Source: Marinobacter alexandrii | GTDB taxonomy: Bacteria; Pseudomonadota; Gammaproteobacteria; Pseudomonadales; Oleiphilaceae | Length of the DNA stretch: 40,000 nt | Direction: 5' to 3' | Assembly (NCBI RefSeq): GCF_005871205.1 | Contig: NZ_SWKM01000014.1 | Coordinates: 1 to 40,000, forward strand | Shown here: positions 4,019-17,974 of the stretch, in pieces | How the letters are laid out: every line of letters begins with the position of its first letter | Position numbering within the stretch: position 1 is the first letter of the stretch | Translations under genes and position numbers: made by a program | Notes under the pieces: generated by a model | Databases searched by the model: none | What the model saw: only the letters and a program-made list of their open reading frames with translations | What the model was told of the DNA's origin: nothing

Positions 4019-4345
4019 ATGCGAATATCTACATTACCCCTAATCGTTCTCTGCCTGTTCATGGGCTTCACCTTTTGGGTTATGGCAGGCGCAGAACAGT
4101 CGCTTCTGGCTTTCGGTGCCCAGCTCATGTCCAGCCCTGACACCGCTCAGGTCGTCGTTGATCTCTACATTCTGGCCGCGCTGGCTTGTGTTTGGATGTA
4201 CCAAGACGCCAAAAGCCGTGGCAAAGGTTTGGGCTATCTCATCCCATTCTTCGTCGTAACAGCGGTGTTTGTATCTGCTGGGCCGCTGCTATATTTGGTG
4301 CTGCGTGGCGGGCGAGAGCCGGAAGCCGAAGCCAGCAAAATATAA
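4019..4345 (+). CDS. DUF2834-like small membrane protein (108 aa)
   Basis: AAGGAAGATCATG start context. Three hydrophobic helices. About 88 percent identical by eye to the product of 23717-24046. Family name is from memory. Confidence 0.7.
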   Translation: MRISTLPLIVLCLFMGFTFWVMAGAEQSLLAFGAQLMSSPDTAQVVVDLYILAALACVWMYQDAKSRGKGLGYLIPFFVVTAVFVSAGPLLYLVLRGGREPEAEASKI

Positions 4346-4425
4346 CAAGCCGCTTAAGTTTGTTCCCGGCCTGTCGGCCGTCCACCGGACGCCACTGTCG
4401 TGGCGCCGCTTAGCTCAGCGTTAAA
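4341..4425 (+). other. attC recombination site (family B)
   Basis: Identical over 83 nt to the attC at 1912-1996. Confidence 0.85.
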
Positions 4426-4439
4426 TTTCTAGAGGCAGT

Positions 4440-4967
4440 ATGAAATATTTTCGTTATTTTTTGATCGCTATCCTTGCTGGTGCAGGGTTTTCTCTTGGTA
4501 TTTTATTCGTCTTCTCGTACGCCTTGCCCCATTTTGAAAGCGAGTATCTTGACCCACACAATGCTACAAACGATATGTTTGAGGAAAGAATTAATGAAGT
4601 GGAGTCGAGCATCGGAATGAGTTGCAAGCAACTCCACCGTGAAGCCTACGAATTTGCGATCGACGATATCGGAAACATCATCGACGCAGGCCTGCAAGGG
4701 CGAGATTGGATAAAAGAGATTAGCCCAGATCAAAAACGCTATATCGACGAGGTTACTGAACAACTCTACCAATGTATGCTTTTGGAGCGGCCGGCAGAGC
4801 AATACCTTCAATTGCAATGGCCTGAGTTTTCGGAGTTACAAAGAACATATTCAGCACTCAAAACTTTTTCAACGTCATATGGTGATGGTGAAGCCACTGC
4901 AGAAAAGCTTAAACCTCAGGCACTGGAACGAATGCAGTTCCACTATCAAAATTTAACAAGGCCATGA
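4440..4967 (+). CDS. membrane-anchored hypothetical protein (175 aa)
   Basis: AGAGG lies 4 nt before the ATG. N-terminal TM helix YFLIAILAGAGFSLGILFVF. The stop lies a few nt inside the attC. Confidence 0.6.
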   Translation: MKYFRYFLIAILAGAGFSLGILFVFSYALPHFESEYLDPHNATNDMFEERINEVESSIGMSCKQLHREAYEFAIDDIGNIIDAGLQGRDWIKEISPDQKRYIDEVTEQLYQCMLLERPAEQYLQLQWPEFSELQRTYSALKTFSTSYGDGEATAEKLKPQALERMQFHYQNLTRP

Positions 4968-5033
4968 AGGTTGTTCCGGGCCGATGGCCCTCCACCGGAC
5001 GCCCTTGTCAGGGCGCCGCTTATGGCTGGCGTT
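4952..5033 (+). other. attC recombination site (family B), R' core interrupted by an IS
   Basis: TTTAACAAGGCCATGAAGGTTGTTCCGGGCC...GCGCCGCTTATGGCTGGCGTT, then the IS. The core resumes as GTTACAC at 6865. Confidence 0.75.
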
Positions 5034-6864
5034 GAGGCTGTAGAAAAACCCCGAAATCCCCCCTCGGGTTTGATAGGATCAGGCAAACAGACAAGGAGTC
5101 GTCGGAATGCCCCGTTTCAAGCATTACAATTACGATCAGGACGCCATGGTCGTGATCAACTACCAGGAACAGCTTCAGCCCGGCACCTTTGAACACGCGG
5201 TGCACTATCTCATCGAACACAAGCTGGACCTGTCAGTGTTCCACCCCAAGTACCGCAACGAAGACACTGGTCGGCTTGCCTACGATCCGGCGATCCTGCT
5301 GAAGATCATCCTGTTCGCCTATTCCAAGGGCATCAAGACCAGCCGCGAGATGCAGTGGTGCTGCGAGACCAACATCACCTTCAAGGCCCTGTCCTGCGAT
5401 ACCGTTCCCCACTTCACCACCCTGGCGAAGTTCGTCAGCAGCCATGCGGATGAGATTGAGGCGCTGTTCGAGCAGGTGCTTTTGGTGTGCCACGAACAGG
5501 GGTTACTGGGGAACGAGCTCTTCGCCATCGACGGCTGCAAGATGCCCTCGAATGCCGCCAAGGAATGGTCCGGCACGTTCAAGGAACTGGAAGAGAAACG
5601 GAAGAAGTTGCGACGACTGATCCGCCACCACTTGAAGGAGCACCATGAGCGGGACGAGGCGGAAACCGAAGCCGAACTGGACCGGAACATCCGCCGGGCA
5701 AAGACGGTTCTCTCCCTGGACGAATCCCTGAAGAAAGTGGACCGCTTCCTAAAGACGAACCGCCCAAGGATGGGCCGGGGGAAGCGGAACAAGGAAGTGA
5801 AGAGCAACATCACCGATAACGAAAGCGCCAAGATGACGACCAGCAAGGGCACGATCCAGGGCTACAACGGTGTGGCCACGGTGGACAAGAAACACCAGAT
5901 CATTATTGATGCCCAGGCCTTTGGCGAAGGCCAGGAACACCACACCTTGCAACCGGTGCTGGAAACGGTCGAAGCCCGATTCAGGAAACTGGGTATCGCC
6001 GATAACATCTACCAGCAGGGTACGGTCATCACCGCCGACACCGGCTTTTCCAACGAAGCCAACATGAAATACCTGCACGAACGACAGATCAACGGCTACG
6101 TACCGGACAACCGATTCCGCAGCCGAGACCCGAAGTTCCAGAATCAGAAAGGCAAGTACGGCAAGCGCCATCAGAGCCAGCTGAACACGGGCTGGAAAGA
6201 CATCATTCCGGCCAGTGAGTTTCAGTTCGATCCGGTCAACCTGACCTGCATCTGCCCAGCGGGCGAAAGCCTGAAATACCATGCAACCCGCACGGACCCA
6301 AACGGCCAAAGCCGGGCCTACTTCCAGGGACGTCTGATGCAGTGCCGGAACTGTCCAAAGAAACATCAGTGCATGCAGAACCCGGAGGCTGCCAACCACC
6401 GGAAGGGTAAAGGCCGACAGGTTTCGTTCACCCTCGAGAACAAGCGCCTGCCTAATTACACCGACTGGATGAAGCACCGCGTCGACAGCCAAAAGGGCAA
6501 AGAGATTTATAGTCACCGGATGTCGGTGGTGGAGCCGGTGTTCGGCAACATTGGCACCAACAAACGGCTGAACCGGTTCAGCTTGCGGGGCAGGAAAAAG
6601 GTCCAGGGCCAGTGGCAGCTATACTGCCTGGTGCACAATATTGAGAAACTGGCGAATTATGGGCGGTTAGCCGCGTGATACAGGGATCAGAAGACTGGAA
6701 ATGTGGCTCTTGGGTGCCAGCAATACCGGCACTGAAAGCGGCAAGGAGTCGAATTGATGCGCTGAGCACTGAAATTGGAATCATCGGTCAGTTGATGGCC
6801 GCGACAAATAATTTTAAGAACCAGGCGCTGGGAACGGCTCGAAATCGGGTTTTTCTACAGCCTC
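5034..6864 (+). mobile_element. IS1182-family insertion sequence (1831 bp)
   Basis: Perfect 18-bp terminal inverted repeats GAGGCTGTAGAAAAACCC (5034-5051 and 6847-6864). GTT flanks both ends (5031-5033 and 6865-6867). Single transposase ORF. Confidence 0.85.
5107..6678 (+). CDS. IS1182-family DDE transposase (523 aa)
   Basis: N-terminal YSKGIKTSREMQWCCETNITFKALS... and C-terminal RFSLRGRKKVQGQWQLYCLVHNIEKL match the IS1182/IS5-like transposases I remember. Confidence 0.85.
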   Translation: MPRFKHYNYDQDAMVVINYQEQLQPGTFEHAVHYLIEHKLDLSVFHPKYRNEDTGRLAYDPAILLKIILFAYSKGIKTSREMQWCCETNITFKALSCDTVPHFTTLAKFVSSHADEIEALFEQVLLVCHEQGLLGNELFAIDGCKMPSNAAKEWSGTFKELEEKRKKLRRLIRHHLKEHHERDEAETEAELDRNIRRAKTVLSLDESLKKVDRFLKTNRPRMGRGKRNKEVKSNITDNESAKMTTSKGTIQGYNGVATVDKKHQIIIDAQAFGEGQEHHTLQPVLETVEARFRKLGIADNIYQQGTVITADTGFSNEANMKYLHERQINGYVPDNRFRSRDPKFQNQKGKYGKRHQSQLNTGWKDIIPASEFQFDPVNLTCICPAGESLKYHATRTDPNGQSRAYFQGRLMQCRNCPKKHQCMQNPEAANHRKGKGRQVSFTLENKRLPNYTDWMKHRVDSQKGKEIYSHRMSVVEPVFGNIGTNKRLNRFSLRGRKKVQGQWQLYCLVHNIEKLANYGRLAA

Positions 6865-10585: not shown

Positions 10586-11063
10586 TGGCTACCGGTTCAT
10601 CTATGCGATGAAGGTAGATGAGCGCATCCACATGAATGACTATTTCCACGATCCTCGGTTTGAATCCAAGAAGCCAATAATGAGCGGGGGATGGAAAGAA
10701 AGATGCGGCGACAACTTTTATCGGCAAGATGGCCAAGGGGCGTGGCTTCAGCTGGCCAATCCCTTTCATGGGGGAATGCTGGATCAAGACACCCGTGTCC
10801 CATTCGTGTTTGTTGGTGAAGAGTTTTGGTATTTGGGAAGAGCTCGTTCAGACGTACCAAAGGAATTCTTAGCTATGATCGGAGGTCGGGGCGCAAGGGT
10901 AAACCATCCTGCAGGTTTACCGGAAAGCTTTATGTGGTGGGTCCGCAAGAACTTTAAGCCAGGTATCACCGCGGATCCCTTGGATGCAGAGGCCAAGAGT
11001 TGCACGCAATCAGGGGCCGCGCTATCCAGCACTTGCGAGCTGAGTTCATGCAACAATGCCTAA
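10542..11063 (+). CDS. conserved hypothetical, Nmad2-like (family name from memory); possibly N-terminally truncated by a frameshift
   Basis: The GDWIAGFSPKS...FIYAMKV...DPRF...CGDNFY pattern matches that family. GTG start has no RBS. TAA stop in the CTAACC box. Confidence 0.55.
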   Translation: MQPGDWIAGFSPKSDGYRFIYAMKVDERIHMNDYFHDPRFESKKPIMSGGWKERCGDNFYRQDGQGAWLQLANPFHGGMLDQDTRVPFVFVGEEFWYLGRARSDVPKEFLAMIGGRGARVNHPAGLPESFMWWVRKNFKPGITADPLDAEAKSCTQSGAALSSTCELSSCNNA

Positions 11064-11133
11064 CCAACCCATGCACCGGATGCCAAAACCTCCGCTTCGC
11101 TGCGGTTTTGTCACCGGTGATGGCGGGCGTTAG
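11059..11133 (+). other. attC recombination site (unique type)
   Basis: CCTAACCAACCCATGCACCGGATGCCAAAACC...GGTTTTGTCACCGGTGATGGCGGGCGTTAGG. Confidence 0.8.
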
Positions 11134-11139
11134 GCTCGT

Positions 11140-11577
11140 ATGGGACTTGAGAGTATCAGACCAGTTTTCAGTGGGTTGCTCGGCGGTGTAATAGCCATTT
11201 GGGTTGGTAATTACATGGCTCGAAAACTGCCGAGATCTTGGTCGGGCATATCGACCGAGGCTTTGGTGAGAAAGCATAAGGCAGCCATTTATTTGTCTAA
11301 TTCGGCTTTCATCATTGGGATATTCTTTGGGTTGTTTCTCTACATTCAGGGATATTTTGAGAGGAATGATTGGCGAGGAATGGGGATCGGTTTCGGTGTG
11401 AGTTGCCTTGGGCCAACCTTGATACTACTGACTTGGTCGATAATTCGGGGGCATAGAATCACAGAATCGTTTTTTGCCTACGGCGTTGCCCAAAAAATGC
11501 CTCTGTGGCTGCTAATGCCCTTACTCGGTTCGGGAATTGCTGCGCTAATTGCGAGCTTGAACAGTATCTTAGCCTAA
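11140..11577 (+). CDS. integral membrane protein (145 aa)
   Basis: Four predicted hydrophobic helices. ATG lies 5 nt after the AGG of the GTTAGG core. TAA stop in the CCTAAC box. Confidence 0.6.
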   Translation: MGLESIRPVFSGLLGGVIAIWVGNYMARKLPRSWSGISTEALVRKHKAAIYLSNSAFIIGIFFGLFLYIQGYFERNDWRGMGIGFGVSCLGPTLILLTWSIIRGHRITESFFAYGVAQKMPLWLLMPLLGSGIAALIASLNSILA

Positions 11578-11650
11578 CAAATTGTTGTAGTTCGTTCCGG
11601 CCGTTGGACTCCACCGGACGCCCTTTTCAGGGCGCCGCTTAGCTCAGCGT
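11573..11650 (+). other. attC recombination site (family B), R' core split by a group II intron
   Basis: CCTAACAAATTGTTGTAGTTCGTTCCGGCC...GCGCCGCTTAGCTCAGCGT, then the intron. The core is completed by TATG at 13521. Confidence 0.8.
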
Positions 11651-13520
11651 GTGTGCCGGGCATGGCACAGAACTAGGGAGGTGAAAGTCCTCCTGCCAGG
11701 TGTTCGCAGAGCCGAAGGCTAGGAGAAGGGCAAGGGCGTCATCGCGAGGTGGGGTCTCCGGAGCGCCGGCCGGAAGTAAGCCCAATCCAAAGCGGCGGGG
11801 CGACGAACAGGAACCCGATACGAGGTGTGGTACATCCGGGGCGAGCGGGCACGTGACCGCGAAGCCCTCCGTCTGCGACCGGGATGTGCTTTATAAATCG
11901 GGTCGGGCCGCGTTCGGATTCATGCCGTGAAAGCTCTGTGCCTTACCCCGGGAGGTCTGCCGCGTGTGGACGGAGCCACTGAGAGACGAGCGATCGCCTC
12001 TGATCGCGTGGCAGAAATCAGCCGAGGGCATAGTAGGTTCGCCCGTGAACCGAAGGCCCGAACAGAGACAGGAGTCGAGATTCCGTGCAGGGTAACGGGA
12101 TGGCATCCGCAAAGCAGCTAGCGCTGCCCCTGGAGTTTCCAGGGGATGAACCCGTTGCCGGAAAGCGGGAAAACTTGCACTCCGTTCAATCCTCACCGTG
12201 GATGGCGCGTGTATTGAGTAGGGACAACCTCAATCGCGCCCTGAAACAGGTTCGACGTAACAAGGGAGCGCCGGGTATCGACGGTATGACCGTGGATGCA
12301 TTGCCGGATCATCTGCGCCAACACTGGCCCGAGATCCGGCAACAACTGCTCCAGCAGACCTACCGACCGAAACCGGTGCGGCGGGTGACCATCCCCAAAG
12401 CCAACGGCGGTTCCCGCCCCCTGGGCATCCCGACGGTGCTGGATCGCTTCATCCAGCAAGCCATCGCTCAGGTTATCCAGCAGGATTGGGACCCCCGCTT
12501 CCACCCACACAGTTATGGCTTCCGCCCGGGGCGCTCCGCCCATCAGGCGGTCCGGTACGGACAACGTTGCGCCCGGGAAGGCCGTAACTGGGTGGTGGAT
12601 CTGGACCTGGAAGCCTTCTTTGACCGGGTAAATCACGATCGCCTGATGGCCCGGCTGAAACGGCATACGCCGGACAGGCCGCTGCTCAGGTTGATCAACC
12701 GGTACCTGAAGGCAGGTGTACAGATCGATCACCGCAAAGCCCCGACACCAGAAGGCGTACCGCAAGGCGGGCCACTGTCTCCGGTGTTGGCGAATGTGGT
12801 GCTGGACGAACTGGACTGGGAGCTGGAGCGGCGCAACCTTTGTTTCGCCCGCTACGCGGATGATTGTCAGATCTACGTTGGCAGTCACCGGGCAGGTGAG
12901 CGAGTGATGGTGAGTCTGACGCGCTTTATCGAGGACTCGCTGAGGCTCACAGTGAATACACGAAAGAGCGCAGTGGATCGGCCCTGGAAGCGAAGCTTCC
13001 TGGGCTTCACCCTCAGCCGGAAAGGGCAGCGACTGAAAGTGGCTAGCAAAGCTATCACCAAGCTGAAAACCCAGATCCGGATACTGAGCCGCCGAACACG
13101 GGGCCACTCTCTGGCCCAGGTGAACGCAGACCTGAAAGAGACCCTGCTTGGTTGGAAAGCGTACTTCGATGAAGCCGAAGTACTGAGCCCGCTGCGGGAC
13201 CTGGACAAGTGGATACGGCGGAGAATGAGATGTTACGTGTGGAAGCAATGGGGCCGAAGGGGGTATCGTGAGCTGAGAAAGCGGGGTGTCTCAGTCGAGC
13301 TGGCCTGGAACACCGCGAAATCAGCCCATGGACCGTGGCGCCTGAGCCGATCACCGGCGCTGGCGCAGGCACTGCCGGCCCGGGTCTTCCGGAGCTATGG
13401 ATTGCCAAAATTGGCAGTGCGGTAACGGGTTGAACCAAGTCACTGAATCGCCGTGGTACGTGATCCGTATGCCCGGTGATGTGGGAGGAGGGGCATCGTG
13501 AGGTGCCTCCCTATCCCGAT
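11651..13520 (+). mobile_element. Group II intron, class C (attC-targeting type) candidate, 1870 bp
   Basis: 5' end GTGTG and 3' end ...CCCGAT. The terminal hairpin (from about 13483) has a bulged A 7 nt before the 3' end (DVI-like). The internal RT/maturase ORF has YADD and no endonuclease domain. Removing the intron restores GCGT|TATG. Confidence 0.8.
12085..13425 (+). CDS. group II intron reverse transcriptase/maturase (446 aa)
   Basis: RT motifs are present, including FARYADDCQIY. There is a maturase X-like C-terminus and no HNH domain. The start could be ATG 12100. Confidence 0.9.
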   Translation: MQGNGMASAKQLALPLEFPGDEPVAGKRENLHSVQSSPWMARVLSRDNLNRALKQVRRNKGAPGIDGMTVDALPDHLRQHWPEIRQQLLQQTYRPKPVRRVTIPKANGGSRPLGIPTVLDRFIQQAIAQVIQQDWDPRFHPHSYGFRPGRSAHQAVRYGQRCAREGRNWVVDLDLEAFFDRVNHDRLMARLKRHTPDRPLLRLINRYLKAGVQIDHRKAPTPEGVPQGGPLSPVLANVVLDELDWELERRNLCFARYADDCQIYVGSHRAGERVMVSLTRFIEDSLRLTVNTRKSAVDRPWKRSFLGFTLSRKGQRLKVASKAITKLKTQIRILSRRTRGHSLAQVNADLKETLLGWKAYFDEAEVLSPLRDLDKWIRRRMRCYVWKQWGRRGYRELRKRGVSVELAWNTAKSAHGPWRLSRSPALAQALPARVFRSYGLPKLAVR

Positions 13521-13528
13521 TATGTGCT

Positions 13529-13557
13529 TTGACACCTGATACGTTACAGGGTACATT
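13529..13557 (+). promoter_or_regulatory. sigma70-type promoter of the higBA cassette
   Basis: TTGACA (13529-13534), a 17-nt spacer, then TACATT (13552-13557). Only 6 nt separate the -10 from the higB ATG. Confidence 0.55.
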
Positions 13558-13563
13558 CAAGGA

Positions 13564-13842
13564 ATGATTCGAAGCTTCAAACACAAGGGCTTGGCAAAAT
13601 TTTTCAAGTCCGGCAGCACTGCAGGGATTCAGGCCGCTCACGCGAAGAGGCTTCAGCTCATTCTCGGTAGATTGAATGCAGCGGCGAATGCCAAAGATAT
13701 GGACTTACCCGGTCTTCGTTTGCACGAACTCTCTGGCACCCGAGCCGGAATCTGGTCAGTGACAGTCAGTGGTAACTGGCGAGTGACCTTCCGGTTCGAA
13801 GACGGAGATGCCGAGATTGTAAACTACGAGGATTATCACTGA
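13564..13842 (+). CDS. higB: HigB-type toxin (RelE/ParE superfamily, killer protein)
   Basis: [14 protein letters not shown]...[21 protein letters not shown] is typical of HigB. The toxin gene lies upstream of the antitoxin gene. Confidence 0.85.
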
Positions 13843-13852
13843 GGTACCGCCA

Positions 13853-14140
13853 ATGTTAATGCACAACCCTCCGCATCCGGGTGAAGTACTGCGAGAGCTT
13901 TGTCTTGAGCCCCTTGGTCTCTCTGTCACGGCGGCGGCAGAGGCATTGGGCGTTAGCCGCAAAACGCTGAGTGCCGTGTTGAATGGCAAGGCCGGTATCA
14001 GTCCCGAAATGGCGATCCGGCTCTCTATTGCTTTCGATACTTCAGCAGAAAGCTGGCTGAATCAGCAGTCCCAATATGAACTCTGGCATGCAGAACAACA
14101 TCGCAAAGAGCTCAATGTAAAGAAGCTTGTTGCAGCCTGA
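13853..14140 (+). CDS. higA: HigA-type antitoxin (XRE-family HTH)
   Basis: HPGEVLRE...[37 protein letters not shown] is an HTH motif, 10 nt downstream of higB. Confidence 0.85.
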
Positions 14141-14145
14141 AGTGG

Positions 14146-14167
14146 CACATAACCAAGCCATGCACCG
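14146..14167 (+). other. attC remnant (R''/L'' half only)
   Basis: CACATAACCAAGCCATGCACCG matches the left arm of the attC at 11059 (CCTAACCAACCCATGCACCG). No right arm or GTT core follows. Confidence 0.5.
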
Positions 14168-14178
14168 AGGAGAATGAA

Positions 14179-14583
14179 GTGCCGATAACCGGCGAGTGTT
14201 TCTGTGGTGAGGTGAGCTACCAAGTCGATGGCAGGCTTCGTGATGCCAGGTCCTGCCACTGCTCCCGCTGCCGTAAAGCCTTCAGCTCCCAGGCTTCAGC
14301 ATATGCATTGGTTGAACCATCTGAGTTCAGTTGGTTGTCCGGCGAGGAGTTGCTTACATCCTATGTGGGCAGCCATGGCTTTGGGCTTCGGTTTTGTAGC
14401 AAATGCGGGTCTACGCTCTGTGGCATTTTTAATGGAGTCATTCATGGTGTGACTTTGGGATGCGTGAACGGCGATCCGGAAATCGAGATTGGCATGCACA
14501 TCTTTGTGGGCTCCAAGGCTACGTGGGAAGTTTTGCCAGACACGGTGACTCAATATCATGAGCAGGGCCCAAACAATGCATAA
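14179..14583 (+). CDS. GFA (glutathione-dependent formaldehyde-activating / CENP-V-like) family protein
   Basis: Cys-rich pattern GECFCGEVSY...CHCSRCRK...CSKCGS. GTG start lies 6 nt after GAGGAG. Confidence 0.8.
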   Translation: MPITGECFCGEVSYQVDGRLRDARSCHCSRCRKAFSSQASAYALVEPSEFSWLSGEELLTSYVGSHGFGLRFCSKCGSTLCGIFNGVIHGVTLGCVNGDPEIEIGMHIFVGSKATWEVLPDTVTQYHEQGPNNA

Positions 14584-15182: not shown

Positions 15183-15264
15183 CCTAACAAGGCCAGTCAG
15201 GGCACGGTTACTGCATTGCGGCTTCGCCTCCATTCCGTAACCGCGCATGCTGGCAGGCGTTAAA
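15183..15264 (+). other. attC recombination site (family A)
   Basis: CCTAACAAGGCCAGTCAGGGCACGG...GCGCATGCTGGCAGGCGTTAAA. Confidence 0.8.
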
Positions 15265-15577
15265 TGCCAGTGATAGCCATGTCCAAGGCTCCGACAATCT
15301 GGTCCCTGAAATGTGCGAGGGAACCAACCGGGTTTTTGAGGTGCTTTTCAGAGACAGAGGAAATTTGCGGGGTTAAAAGTAGAAGCTCTTGGTCTGCAAA
15401 GCTGATTTCCGGCGTGAGTCCCTGCATGGCTTCGCCACCAAATGCGGAGCGTTTTCCCAAAGGGATTATGATGCGAGTTGCCAGCTCACTCAGCAGACTG
15501 CTCTGAATATCGACAAGGTAAGGGTAGTGCGCTTTGCTGGTCTTGCTTGGGTTAGGGTAGACATCGAACTGTGCCAT
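15260..15577 (-). CDS. ccdB: CcdB-family toxin
   Basis: MAQFDVYPNPSK...YPYLVDIQS is the CcdB signature. The ATG overlaps the ccdA stop (TGATG). Its own stop overlaps the GTTAA core. Confidence 0.85.
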   Translation of the reverse strand: MAQFDVYPNPSKTSKAHYPYLVDIQSSLLSELATRIIIPLGKRSAFGGEAMQGLTPEISFADQELLLLTPQISSVSEKHLKNPVGSLAHFRDQIVGALDMAITGI

Positions 15578-15822
15578 CAAAACTCCCTAAATTCGTCGCC
15601 GAAGCATCCATGTTGTTCGACAAAGTCGTTGTAACTTTTTATGGCAGCGCGGTTTTCTTCAACCCATAGTTCTGTTTCGCGTTTGGAGAGCTCTTCTTTC
15701 AACGCTCGCTCCAGGGTAGCAGAAAGGTTGATGTTCAGTTCACGGGTCTTACGCAGCAGATCGCTATTGATTGAGAGATTCGCCGCTTTTTTCGGTGCGG
15801 CTGCGTTGTAGAGTTCGGCCAT
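15577..15822 (-). CDS. ccdA: CcdA-family antitoxin
   Basis: KKAANLSINSDLLRKTRELNINLSATLERAL is CcdA-like. GGAGG lies 6 nt before ATG 15822. Confidence 0.8.
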   Translation of the reverse strand: MAELYNAAAPKKAANLSINSDLLRKTRELNINLSATLERALKEELSKRETELWVEENRAAIKSYNDFVEQHGCFGDEFREF

Positions 15823-15888
15823 TTGAGCCTCCAAGTGGCTATTTAATGCATGGTCTAGTCTATGCGCATGGAAGTGCGCATTCAAGCA

Positions 15889-15958
15889 TTTAACCAAAGG
15901 CTGTTGTCGGACGCACCTACGCTGGCGCTCCGTTGCGCCGCAAAGCAAAGGCGTTATG
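15889..15958 (+). other. attC recombination site (unique type)
   Basis: TTTAACCAAAGGCTGTTGTCGGACGC...GCGCCGCAAAGCAAAGGCGTTATG. Confidence 0.75.
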
Positions 15959-15983
15959 TGAATCAACCAAGGGGAGGATCAGC

Positions 15984-16615: not shown

Positions 16616-17974
16616 TTGGCACTGCAAAGAGGCATCGGCGAGTTGGACCACTTACACCACCCGAAGAAAACCGATACACGCGGTGTCGCAACTGCCTATT
16701 TTGATGCCCAGAGGCGTTTTCTTGACCTGTTCCTAAGGCGCCATCTGTCCCGCCTGTCCCAGCAGGAGTTACGTCGCAGTCGGGTGATGGTGGCTTTGTT
16801 GATTTTCGGCATCTTGGCAATTTCGGCCATGGCCGTTGTCCGCTTGTCGACAGAAGGGATTGGACCAGTGTCCCTGGTGGTGTGTTTCGGGGTACTTGCC
16901 ATCGTTGCCAGCCTTGTGTTCTTTGTCCGAACAGGAAAGAGCGGGGCGGCTGGGGATCTGCTGATTCTGAGTGGTGTTGCCGTTATCTTCATGACGGCCA
17001 TTAACGACAACGGGCTGCATTCCCGGGTGCTCACCTGGCTGCCTTCGTTGCCGCTGATTGCTAATTTCACCTCAGCCCGACTGACTGCTATGCGAACGAC
17101 CCTGCTCGTGTTGTTTGGGTTGTTGATGCTTTTGGCGGCCCATGAAATGCAGTGGATCGCTAGCAGCTACCCGGACGAATCGTTGGTCGGGCGTCTAACA
17201 GCCGGTTTTGGTTCCATGCTTTTTGTCTCGGCCATTGCCTATGCGTACGAGGATTCCCGGCGCCAGGCCGATAAGGAAAGGGACGCCTTGAGTCGTACCC
17301 GGAGTGATTGGGTGAGCATGGTCAGTCATGAGTTGAGAACGCCCCTTACTTCCCTTTACGGCGGCCTCAAACTGCTGGCCAATGGCAAACTGGACGAGCA
17401 GCCGGAAACGCAGCAAACATTGCTGACGATGTCGACCCGCAATACCGAACGACTAATTGGTCTGGTTAATGATGTTCTGGATGTTGAGCGATTGTCCGAA
17501 AGCCGCTTTGAGCTGAATCTGAAAACCATTGATCTGGCGGGCGTCATCGACGAAGCCGTGAAAATTCAGCAATACCTGGCAGACGAAGGGGGCATTGTAC
17601 TGCGCACCCGGCTCGAGCCCGTGTCGTCGGTAATGGCCGATCCTGATCGTCTGTTACAGGTGGTACAAAACCTCTTGTCCAATGCCATCAAGTTTTCTCA
17701 TGCCGGTGGTGAGGTAGTGGTCCATCTGGCACCGTCAGAGGCAGGGATCATGTGCAACGTCCAGGATGAAGGGGAGGGTGTGTCAGAGGCGTTCAGCAAC
17801 CATCTGTTTGAGCGTTTTGCCCAGGAAACGTCCGACACACGTCGACGCTCCGGAGGCTCCGGGCTCGGTCTGTACATCAGCAAGGGGATAATTGAGTTGC
17901 ACGGTGGACAAATTGGTTATCGGTCCAGAGAGACGGGCGGTAGCGAGTTTTTCTTCACCCTACCGGACCGCTAA
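16616..17974 (+). CDS. membrane sensor histidine kinase (orphan; start uncertain)
   Basis: H-box SHELRTPLTS and G2 box GGSGLGLYISKGIIELHGG. Several N-terminal TM helices. TTG start as tracked. Confidence 0.85.
   Translation: MALQRGIGELDHLHHPKKTDTRGVATAYFDAQRRFLDLFLRRHLSRLSQQELRRSRVMVALLIFGILAISAMAVVRLSTEGIGPVSLVVCFGVLAIVASLVFFVRTGKSGAAGDLLILSGVAVIFMTAINDNGLHSRVLTWLPSLPLIANFTSARLTAMRTTLLVLFGLLMLLAAHEMQWIASSYPDESLVGRLTAGFGSMLFVSAIAYAYEDSRRQADKERDALSRTRSDWVSMVSHELRTPLTSLYGGLKLLANGKLDEQPETQQTLLTMSTRNTERLIGLVNDVLDVERLSESRFELNLKTIDLAGVIDEAVKIQQYLADEGGIVLRTRLEPVSSVMADPDRLLQVVQNLLSNAIKFSHAGGEVVVHLAPSEAGIMCNVQDEGEGVSEAFSNHLFERFAQETSDTRRRSGGSGLGLYISKGIIELHGGQIGYRSRETGGSEFFFTLPDR

Follow-up and report, generated by a model that had tools for sequence, protein, structure and literature searches.

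The published class C group II introns that invade integron attC sites (IIC-attC introns), namely the S.ma.I2 lineage, insert into the bottom strand of attC at R'' and lie antisense to the cassettes (Leon, Quiroga, Centron, Roy 2010, PMC3001079; PMC7923331). Their consensus target is given as TTGT/T in the latter source (throughout, a slash marks the insertion point), and integron reviews present the antisense, bottom-strand arrangement as the rule for attC introns. Members of this lineage settle between a gene and its attC, block Pc transcripts and supply an outward promoter. Sense copies are on record as well: a sense, top-strand IIC intron in an attC of E. cloacae was described by Rodriguez-Martinez, Nordmann and Poirel (2012, J Bacteriol 194:150), as reported in PMC7923331, and a sense copy on a plasmid of S. 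algae KC-Na-R1 was noted in 2022 (PMC9229058). Other class C introns, those of the B.h.I1 type, target transcription terminators (Robart, Seo, Zimmerly 2007, as cited in PMC4424553).

Here, we describe a IIC intron in a 40,000-nucleotide stretch of Marinobacter DNA (the window), which forms the first 40 kb of contig C14. We believe, with a probability of about 85%, that this element is an intact and probably still mobile IIC intron and that it entered an attC of a sedentary chromosomal integron by retrohoming into the top (cassette-sense) strand. It is a further example of the already reported sense attC introns and not a new type of element. Like the S.ma.I2 lineage, it combines a class C ribozyme with a reverse transcriptase (RT) that lacks an endonuclease (En) domain; both use an attC hairpin plus an IBS1 of 3-4 nt ending in GT, followed by the T of the GTT core, both split the attC, and both the window's kin and the S.ma.I2 lineage occur in chromosomal as well as class 1 integrons. 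However, the S.ma.I2 lineage enters the bottom strand at R'' (TTGT/T), whereas the window intron occupies the top strand at R' (GCGT/T) and reads in the same direction as the cassettes.

The intron comprises positions 11651-13520 on the + strand (1870 nt), begins with 5' GUGUG and ends with AU 3', and its junctions read ...CTCAGCGT / GTGTGCC...CCCTATCCCGAT / TATGTGC. The initial annotation had proposed the same boundaries from the GTGTG start, the ...CCCGAT end and the GCGT/TATG core recreated on removal, and they are borne out by exon joining and by an empty allele (see below). In the comparison with group II intron models suggested by that annotation, Rfam models matched domains D1-D4 at 11753-11941 (RF02001, 78.5 bits) and 11979-12058 (RF01998, 50.9 bits), both in excess of their gathering scores, and the D5/D6 model RF00029 gave a match that ends at exactly 13520. 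Although this last match scored 24 bits, which is under the gathering score of 40 bits, the D5/D6 assignment has independent support from the stability of the fold relative to shuffled sequences (z = -3.1) and from compensatory changes, which we found in 7 of 26 pairs in an alignment of 15 introns (the window intron and 14 relatives). Domain V (34 nt, 13447-13480, +; Rfam, fold and covariation) contains the CGC catalytic triad at 13449-13451; a CGC rather than an AGC triad is characteristic of class C, as in the O. iheyensis intron. Domain VI (13482-13518, +; fold and covariation) has its bulged A at 13513, and the predicted spacing of 7 nt between this residue and the 3' splice site was found. 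At the level of sequence and modelled structure, we therefore regard 11651-13520 (+) as confirmed to be a complete class C group II intron.

The intron encodes an RT/maturase of 446 aa at 12085-13425 (+), which starts with GTG and has an ATG 5 codons later. The frame is uninterrupted, the Pfam domains RVT_1 and GIIM are both matched over their full length, the YADD motif is present (in the peptide YADDCQIY), and a Pfam search of this ORF returned no endonuclease domain, all of which agrees with the earlier description of a YADD-type RT without En. The class C assignment made at that time is likewise upheld by comparison with RTs of solved structure: the best match is the GsI-IIC RT with 427 bits, and three other class C RTs scored 299-338 bits, whereas IIA and IIB RTs reached just 122-125 bits. 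A second RT had been considered in the window for the ORF at 16616-17974 because of its size; this ORF was ruled out, as it encodes a histidine kinase.

The intron interrupts the R' core of an attC, with GCGT on its 5' side and TATG on its 3' side. Its 5' exon, the 5' part of the attC (11572-11650, +), holds the hairpin-forming arms and runs from R'' GCCTAAC (11572-11578) through ...GCTCAGCGT, as recognised from repeat families D4, D8 and D12 and from alignment with intact paralogous attCs. The final three bases of this exon, CGT (11648-11650, +), constitute IBS1, and the 3' exon (13521-13527, +) begins with the T at the IBS3 position and continues with the remainder of the R' core, TATGTGC. 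In silico joining of the exons yields ...CAGCGTTATGTG, and intact attCs elsewhere in this array can be aligned with it over the full length from R'' to R'. Moreover, Marinobacter genome G415 carries an empty allele, in which the upstream cassette (95% identity) is followed by the uninterrupted attC ...AAGCGTTATGTG, and this suggests that the intron was inserted after the two genomes had split. The upstream cassette is an ORF of 145 aa (11140-11577, +) that matches no Pfam family and has its TAA stop inside the R'' box of the interrupted attC. The next cassette (13564-14140, +) contains, by Pfam, higB (13564-13842) and an HTH antitoxin (13853-14140), and just upstream of higB lies a putative sigma-70-like promoter at 13529-13557 (+; TTGACA, 17 nt, TACATT), identified by consensus match only. 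These observations are in line with the initial annotation, which had placed the intron in the R' core, sense to the cassettes, directly upstream of a self-promoted higBA cassette and at the mirror image of the bottom-strand TTGT/T site (PMC3001079; PMC7923331). The + strand carries the intron and the cassette ORFs and is also the top strand of the attC.

How the intron may find this site is suggested by the pairing between its EBS1 and the exon. In an alignment of 36 related introns (460 nt from the start of each), we sought 3-nt stretches complementary to the end of the respective 5' exon (final 3 nt), and one column block stood out, holding the exon complement in 32 of 35 related introns. 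In the window intron, this block corresponds to ACG at 11851-11853 (+), located in a D1 hairpin whose loop reads GCACGUGA. Among the relatives, loop and exon covary (ACG/CGT, AAAG/CTTT, AUA/TAT, AAC/GTT and CAC/GTG), which identifies the D1 loop as EBS1 pairing with IBS1. EBS1 is ACG in 17/17 introns inserted at CGT/T, and the 3' exon opens with T in each of the 15 members of this set with a covered 3' junction, as well as at 4/4 sites in kin strains. CGT/T is the sole sequence common to these targets, i.e. they consist of a hairpin plus an IBS1 of 3-4 nt rather than a long homing site. We propose that, as with other IIC introns, a DNA hairpin and a very short exon sequence would be recognised, and that EBS1 ACG would pair with CGT, made up of the C before the conserved GTT core and the first two bases of that core. 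Such pairing would direct insertion to the GT/T position of R', a single base away from the point of integrase crossover (G/TT). In the antisense clade, the homologous loop reads GCACAAGA and EBS1 is ACAA, which pairs with TTGT and would lead to landing at TTGT/T on the other strand, at R''. The contrast between EBS1 ACG and ACAA, pairing with opposite-strand sequences, therefore offers a simple and testable account of strand choice.

The sense orientation had been flagged as unusual at first, and this part of the initial annotation does not hold. A 5' exon ending in CGT was found for 17 related introns, all 17 of which are inserted at CGT/T of attC-like sites, and at loci with long enough flanks most neighbouring ORFs share the strand of the intron. 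The hosts include Marinobacter, Rhodoferax and other Burkholderiales, Povalibacter, Amphritea, Thiodiazotropha and other lineages. Two of these introns reside in plasmid class 1 integrons, one in the aadA1 attC of pR148 (...CAAGCGT/TAGATG) and one in the aac(6')-Ib attC of pPp47 (...CAAACGT/TAGATG), and in both plasmids ltrA has the orientation of the cassettes and is opposed to intI1. A second RT match in pPp47 was discarded as a reference (36% identity and a stop). The RTs of the plasmid copies (pR148, pPp47 and the S. algae plasmid) are 62-67% identical to the window RT; that of the S. algae plasmid (CP033574) is 62% identical, and pR148 scored the same (62.1%, 532 bits). The E. cloacae intron reported in 2012 is presumed to be a copy of the pR148 type. 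The window intron resembles the E. cloacae/S. algae type in its use of the attC top strand and its co-orientation with the cassettes, the E. cloacae copy being compared as described in PMC7923331; it differs in location, since its host is an environmental Marinobacter, where it occupies a sedentary chromosomal integron and not a class 1 resistance integron. Every close relative that could be placed, including those in plasmid class 1 integrons, thus shares the sense arrangement, and sense copies had already been published for E. cloacae (via PMC7923331) and for the S. algae plasmid (PMC9229058). Within the clade of this intron at least, the sense orientation at R' is the norm.

For the antisense lineage, we used S.ma.I2-type stand-ins rather than S.ma.I2 itself (L095, L099, L106 and L110-L112), and the antisense copies in class 1 integrons were found by tblastn with the L095 RT. 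Antisense-type introns with 5' GUACG at a TTGT/TA exon occur in gammaproteobacterial genomes (L095, L097, L099 and L106). Their plasmid relatives (66-71% RT identity) are located in class 1 integrons and are antisense to the cassettes, with L111 and L112 lying directly after aadA. An aadA-type attC has been invaded by both clades on opposite strands, at ...GCGT/TAGATG on the top strand (pR148) and at ...GAATTGT/ on the bottom strand (pENT-812c).

Phylogenetic analysis of 43 RTs (IQ-TREE; supports given as UFboot/SH-aLRT) placed the window RT within a core sense clade of 14 (99/95), and 17/17 CGT/T introns fell on the same side of one branch (79/65). The antisense clade, which unites the copies from class 1 integrons with their chromosomal relatives, was recovered with 100/100 support; it adjoins different terminator-type introns. 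One of the three terminator-type rows in this tree is L096 from the unpublished genome G141, and no claim depends on this row. With regard to the placement of the RT, the class C type proposed at the outset was retained, and its position proved to be outside the S.ma.I2-type antisense clade and inside the sense clade. These results bear on the idea that the window harbours a classical S.ma.I2-type intron which entered the wrong strand of a nearly palindromic attC by accident. The ends of attC are indeed palindromic (TAAC...GTTA), and GT/TA follows the hairpin on either strand. However, the antisense clade excludes the window RT at full support, the window intron has 5' GUGUG and EBS1 ACG where the antisense stand-ins have 5' GUACG and EBS1 ACAA, and the sense habit is common to all its relatives, and we consequently give such an accident almost no credence. 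The two attC-targeting clades are apart in the maximum likelihood tree, but a common grouping was not rejected by the AU test (p 0.246), and we do not claim that attC targeting originated twice.

A further possibility is a terminator-targeting IIC intron which landed behind the attC hairpin by chance and has no specificity for attC; in its favour, remoter relatives of the window intron (about 53-56% RT identity) follow hairpin-plus-T-run terminators. The window intron is like B.h.I1-type introns and GsI-IIC in belonging to class C, in using a hairpin and a short IBS1, in its CGC triad and in having no En domain. Another target type of IIC-attC introns was reportedly described by Leon and Roy in 2009 as transcription terminators. 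That IIC-attC introns keep a target type besides attC is stated in PMC7923331. In contrast to terminator-type introns, which are found after a terminator stem and T-run and have an A-rich EBS1, the window intron is fixed on the CGT of the attC core; its site has no T-run, EBS1 is constantly ACG in 17/17 introns and matches the CGT of R', and at least 20 independent insertions occupy the same position of attC-like sites. We regard a chance landing of this kind as highly improbable.

Evidence that this intron may still move comes from kin strains, in which copies with 98% nucleotide identity are inserted at GCGT/T of four distinct attCs, one genome accounting for three of these. In its own genome, the intron is present once. 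This single copy, in spite of the many empty GCGT/TA attCs in the same array, could point to a structurally complete but immobile relic that is no longer spliced and is merely inherited with the array, and a copy with a broken RT frame in M. oulmenensis agrees with such a fate. In the array of the window, two intact and mutually identical attCs (1913-1995 and 4342-4424) have a right arm that matches the intron-occupied attC of kin strain L121 (...GCTTAGCTCAGCGT/), so that the array offers empty preferred targets although its genome has just one intron copy. We nevertheless think it unlikely that the window intron is a relic, since the 446-aa ORF is uninterrupted with full-length RT and maturase matches, D5/D6 is conserved, the element is 98% identical to an intron with three copies in one kin strain, and the empty allele of G415 suggests insertion after the genomes diverged. 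The M. oulmenensis copy (L003:3596-5435) is the same intron at 91% nucleotide identity in another attC (...CTCTGCGT/TAGCAG); judging from its longest RT ORF of 312 aa, it is probably decaying.

The orientation of an attC intron has consequences for its expression and for that of its neighbours. A consensus-match scan of 10900-14300 detected no promoter-like site on the + strand upstream of the intron or within it (10900-13528), and this, together with the sense orientation, implies that the intron is probably transcribed by read-through from upstream cassettes; it may be driven by an internal or cassette promoter. The intron would then be spliced out of the read-through transcript. In this manner, a sense intron can leave the cassette transcript without necessarily silencing the cassettes downstream. 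The attC is nonetheless lost in the DNA: the insertion splits R', which probably inactivates the site and would weld the upstream cassette to higBA.

The strand on which the intron lies may also be linked to replication. GC skew is positive on the + strand over ~500 kb of C14, which would place the attC top strands on the lagging-strand template; skew is an indirect measure of strand, and local skew is confounded by coding-strand bias. The intron-bearing strand would be the G-rich (leading) strand, and the parental copy would accordingly have been the lagging-strand template. This is the template that En-less introns would favour, and it would hold the attC top strands in most sedentary integrons. 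En-less RmInt1 is reported to enter the lagging-strand template (PMC5010178), and in 25/30 sedentary integrons the bottom strand is on the leading-strand template (PMC5371416). Skew was noisy with flanks of ~2-7 kb and was therefore repeated with 20-kb flanks, for which few loci were available; under these conditions, the skew of the intron strand was positive on both sides in 5/6 chromosomal loci (both clades). This result fits the possibility that the orientation of an array decides which clade can invade it. Taken together, the relatives form a coherent sense-strand clade that extends from environmental chromosomal integrons to clinical class 1 integrons. [quoted passage not shown]

The cassette array extends from window position 1 to about 16.5 kb on the + strand, and its attC sites, which read TAAC...GCGTTA in the repeat families, were called from these families and from alignments; a simple regex-and-fold scan overlooked many of them. 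The integron integrase was found on a separate contig of the same genome (G000 C17:5234-6169, TIGR02249, 425.7 bits), indicating that the array was divided by the draft assembly. GC skew of C17 has the opposite sign, which fits a reversed C17 joined to the start of C14 via small repeat contigs. The array is interrupted at 5107-6678, just past the attC at 4951-5037, by an IS whose transposase (523 aa) is of the DDE_Tnp_1_6 type; in kin strains (L121 and L124), a transposase ORF of equal length and Pfam domain content adjoins intron copies. A ccdA/ccdB pair at 15260-15966 is on the - strand, inverse to most cassettes.

Several related introns showed further arrangements. At L005:1559-5421, an intron is apparently interrupted, with intron positions 1-384 at 1559-1913, positions 576-1870 at 4133-5421 and ~2.2 kb of other DNA between them. 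Tandem or nested copies were seen in L021, L068 and L069, where an intron starts right after the ...CCCGAT 3' end of another. Finally, two related IIC subgroups, mainly from Acidobacteriota and Alphaproteobacteria MAGs (L051, L054, L064, L067, L069, L073 and L075-L079), are inserted after the motif ...GCCGCGC..AGCGGCTTCGTT/ and have EBS1 AAC(G); this motif seems to be a conserved hairpin target distinct from both T-run terminators and attCs.
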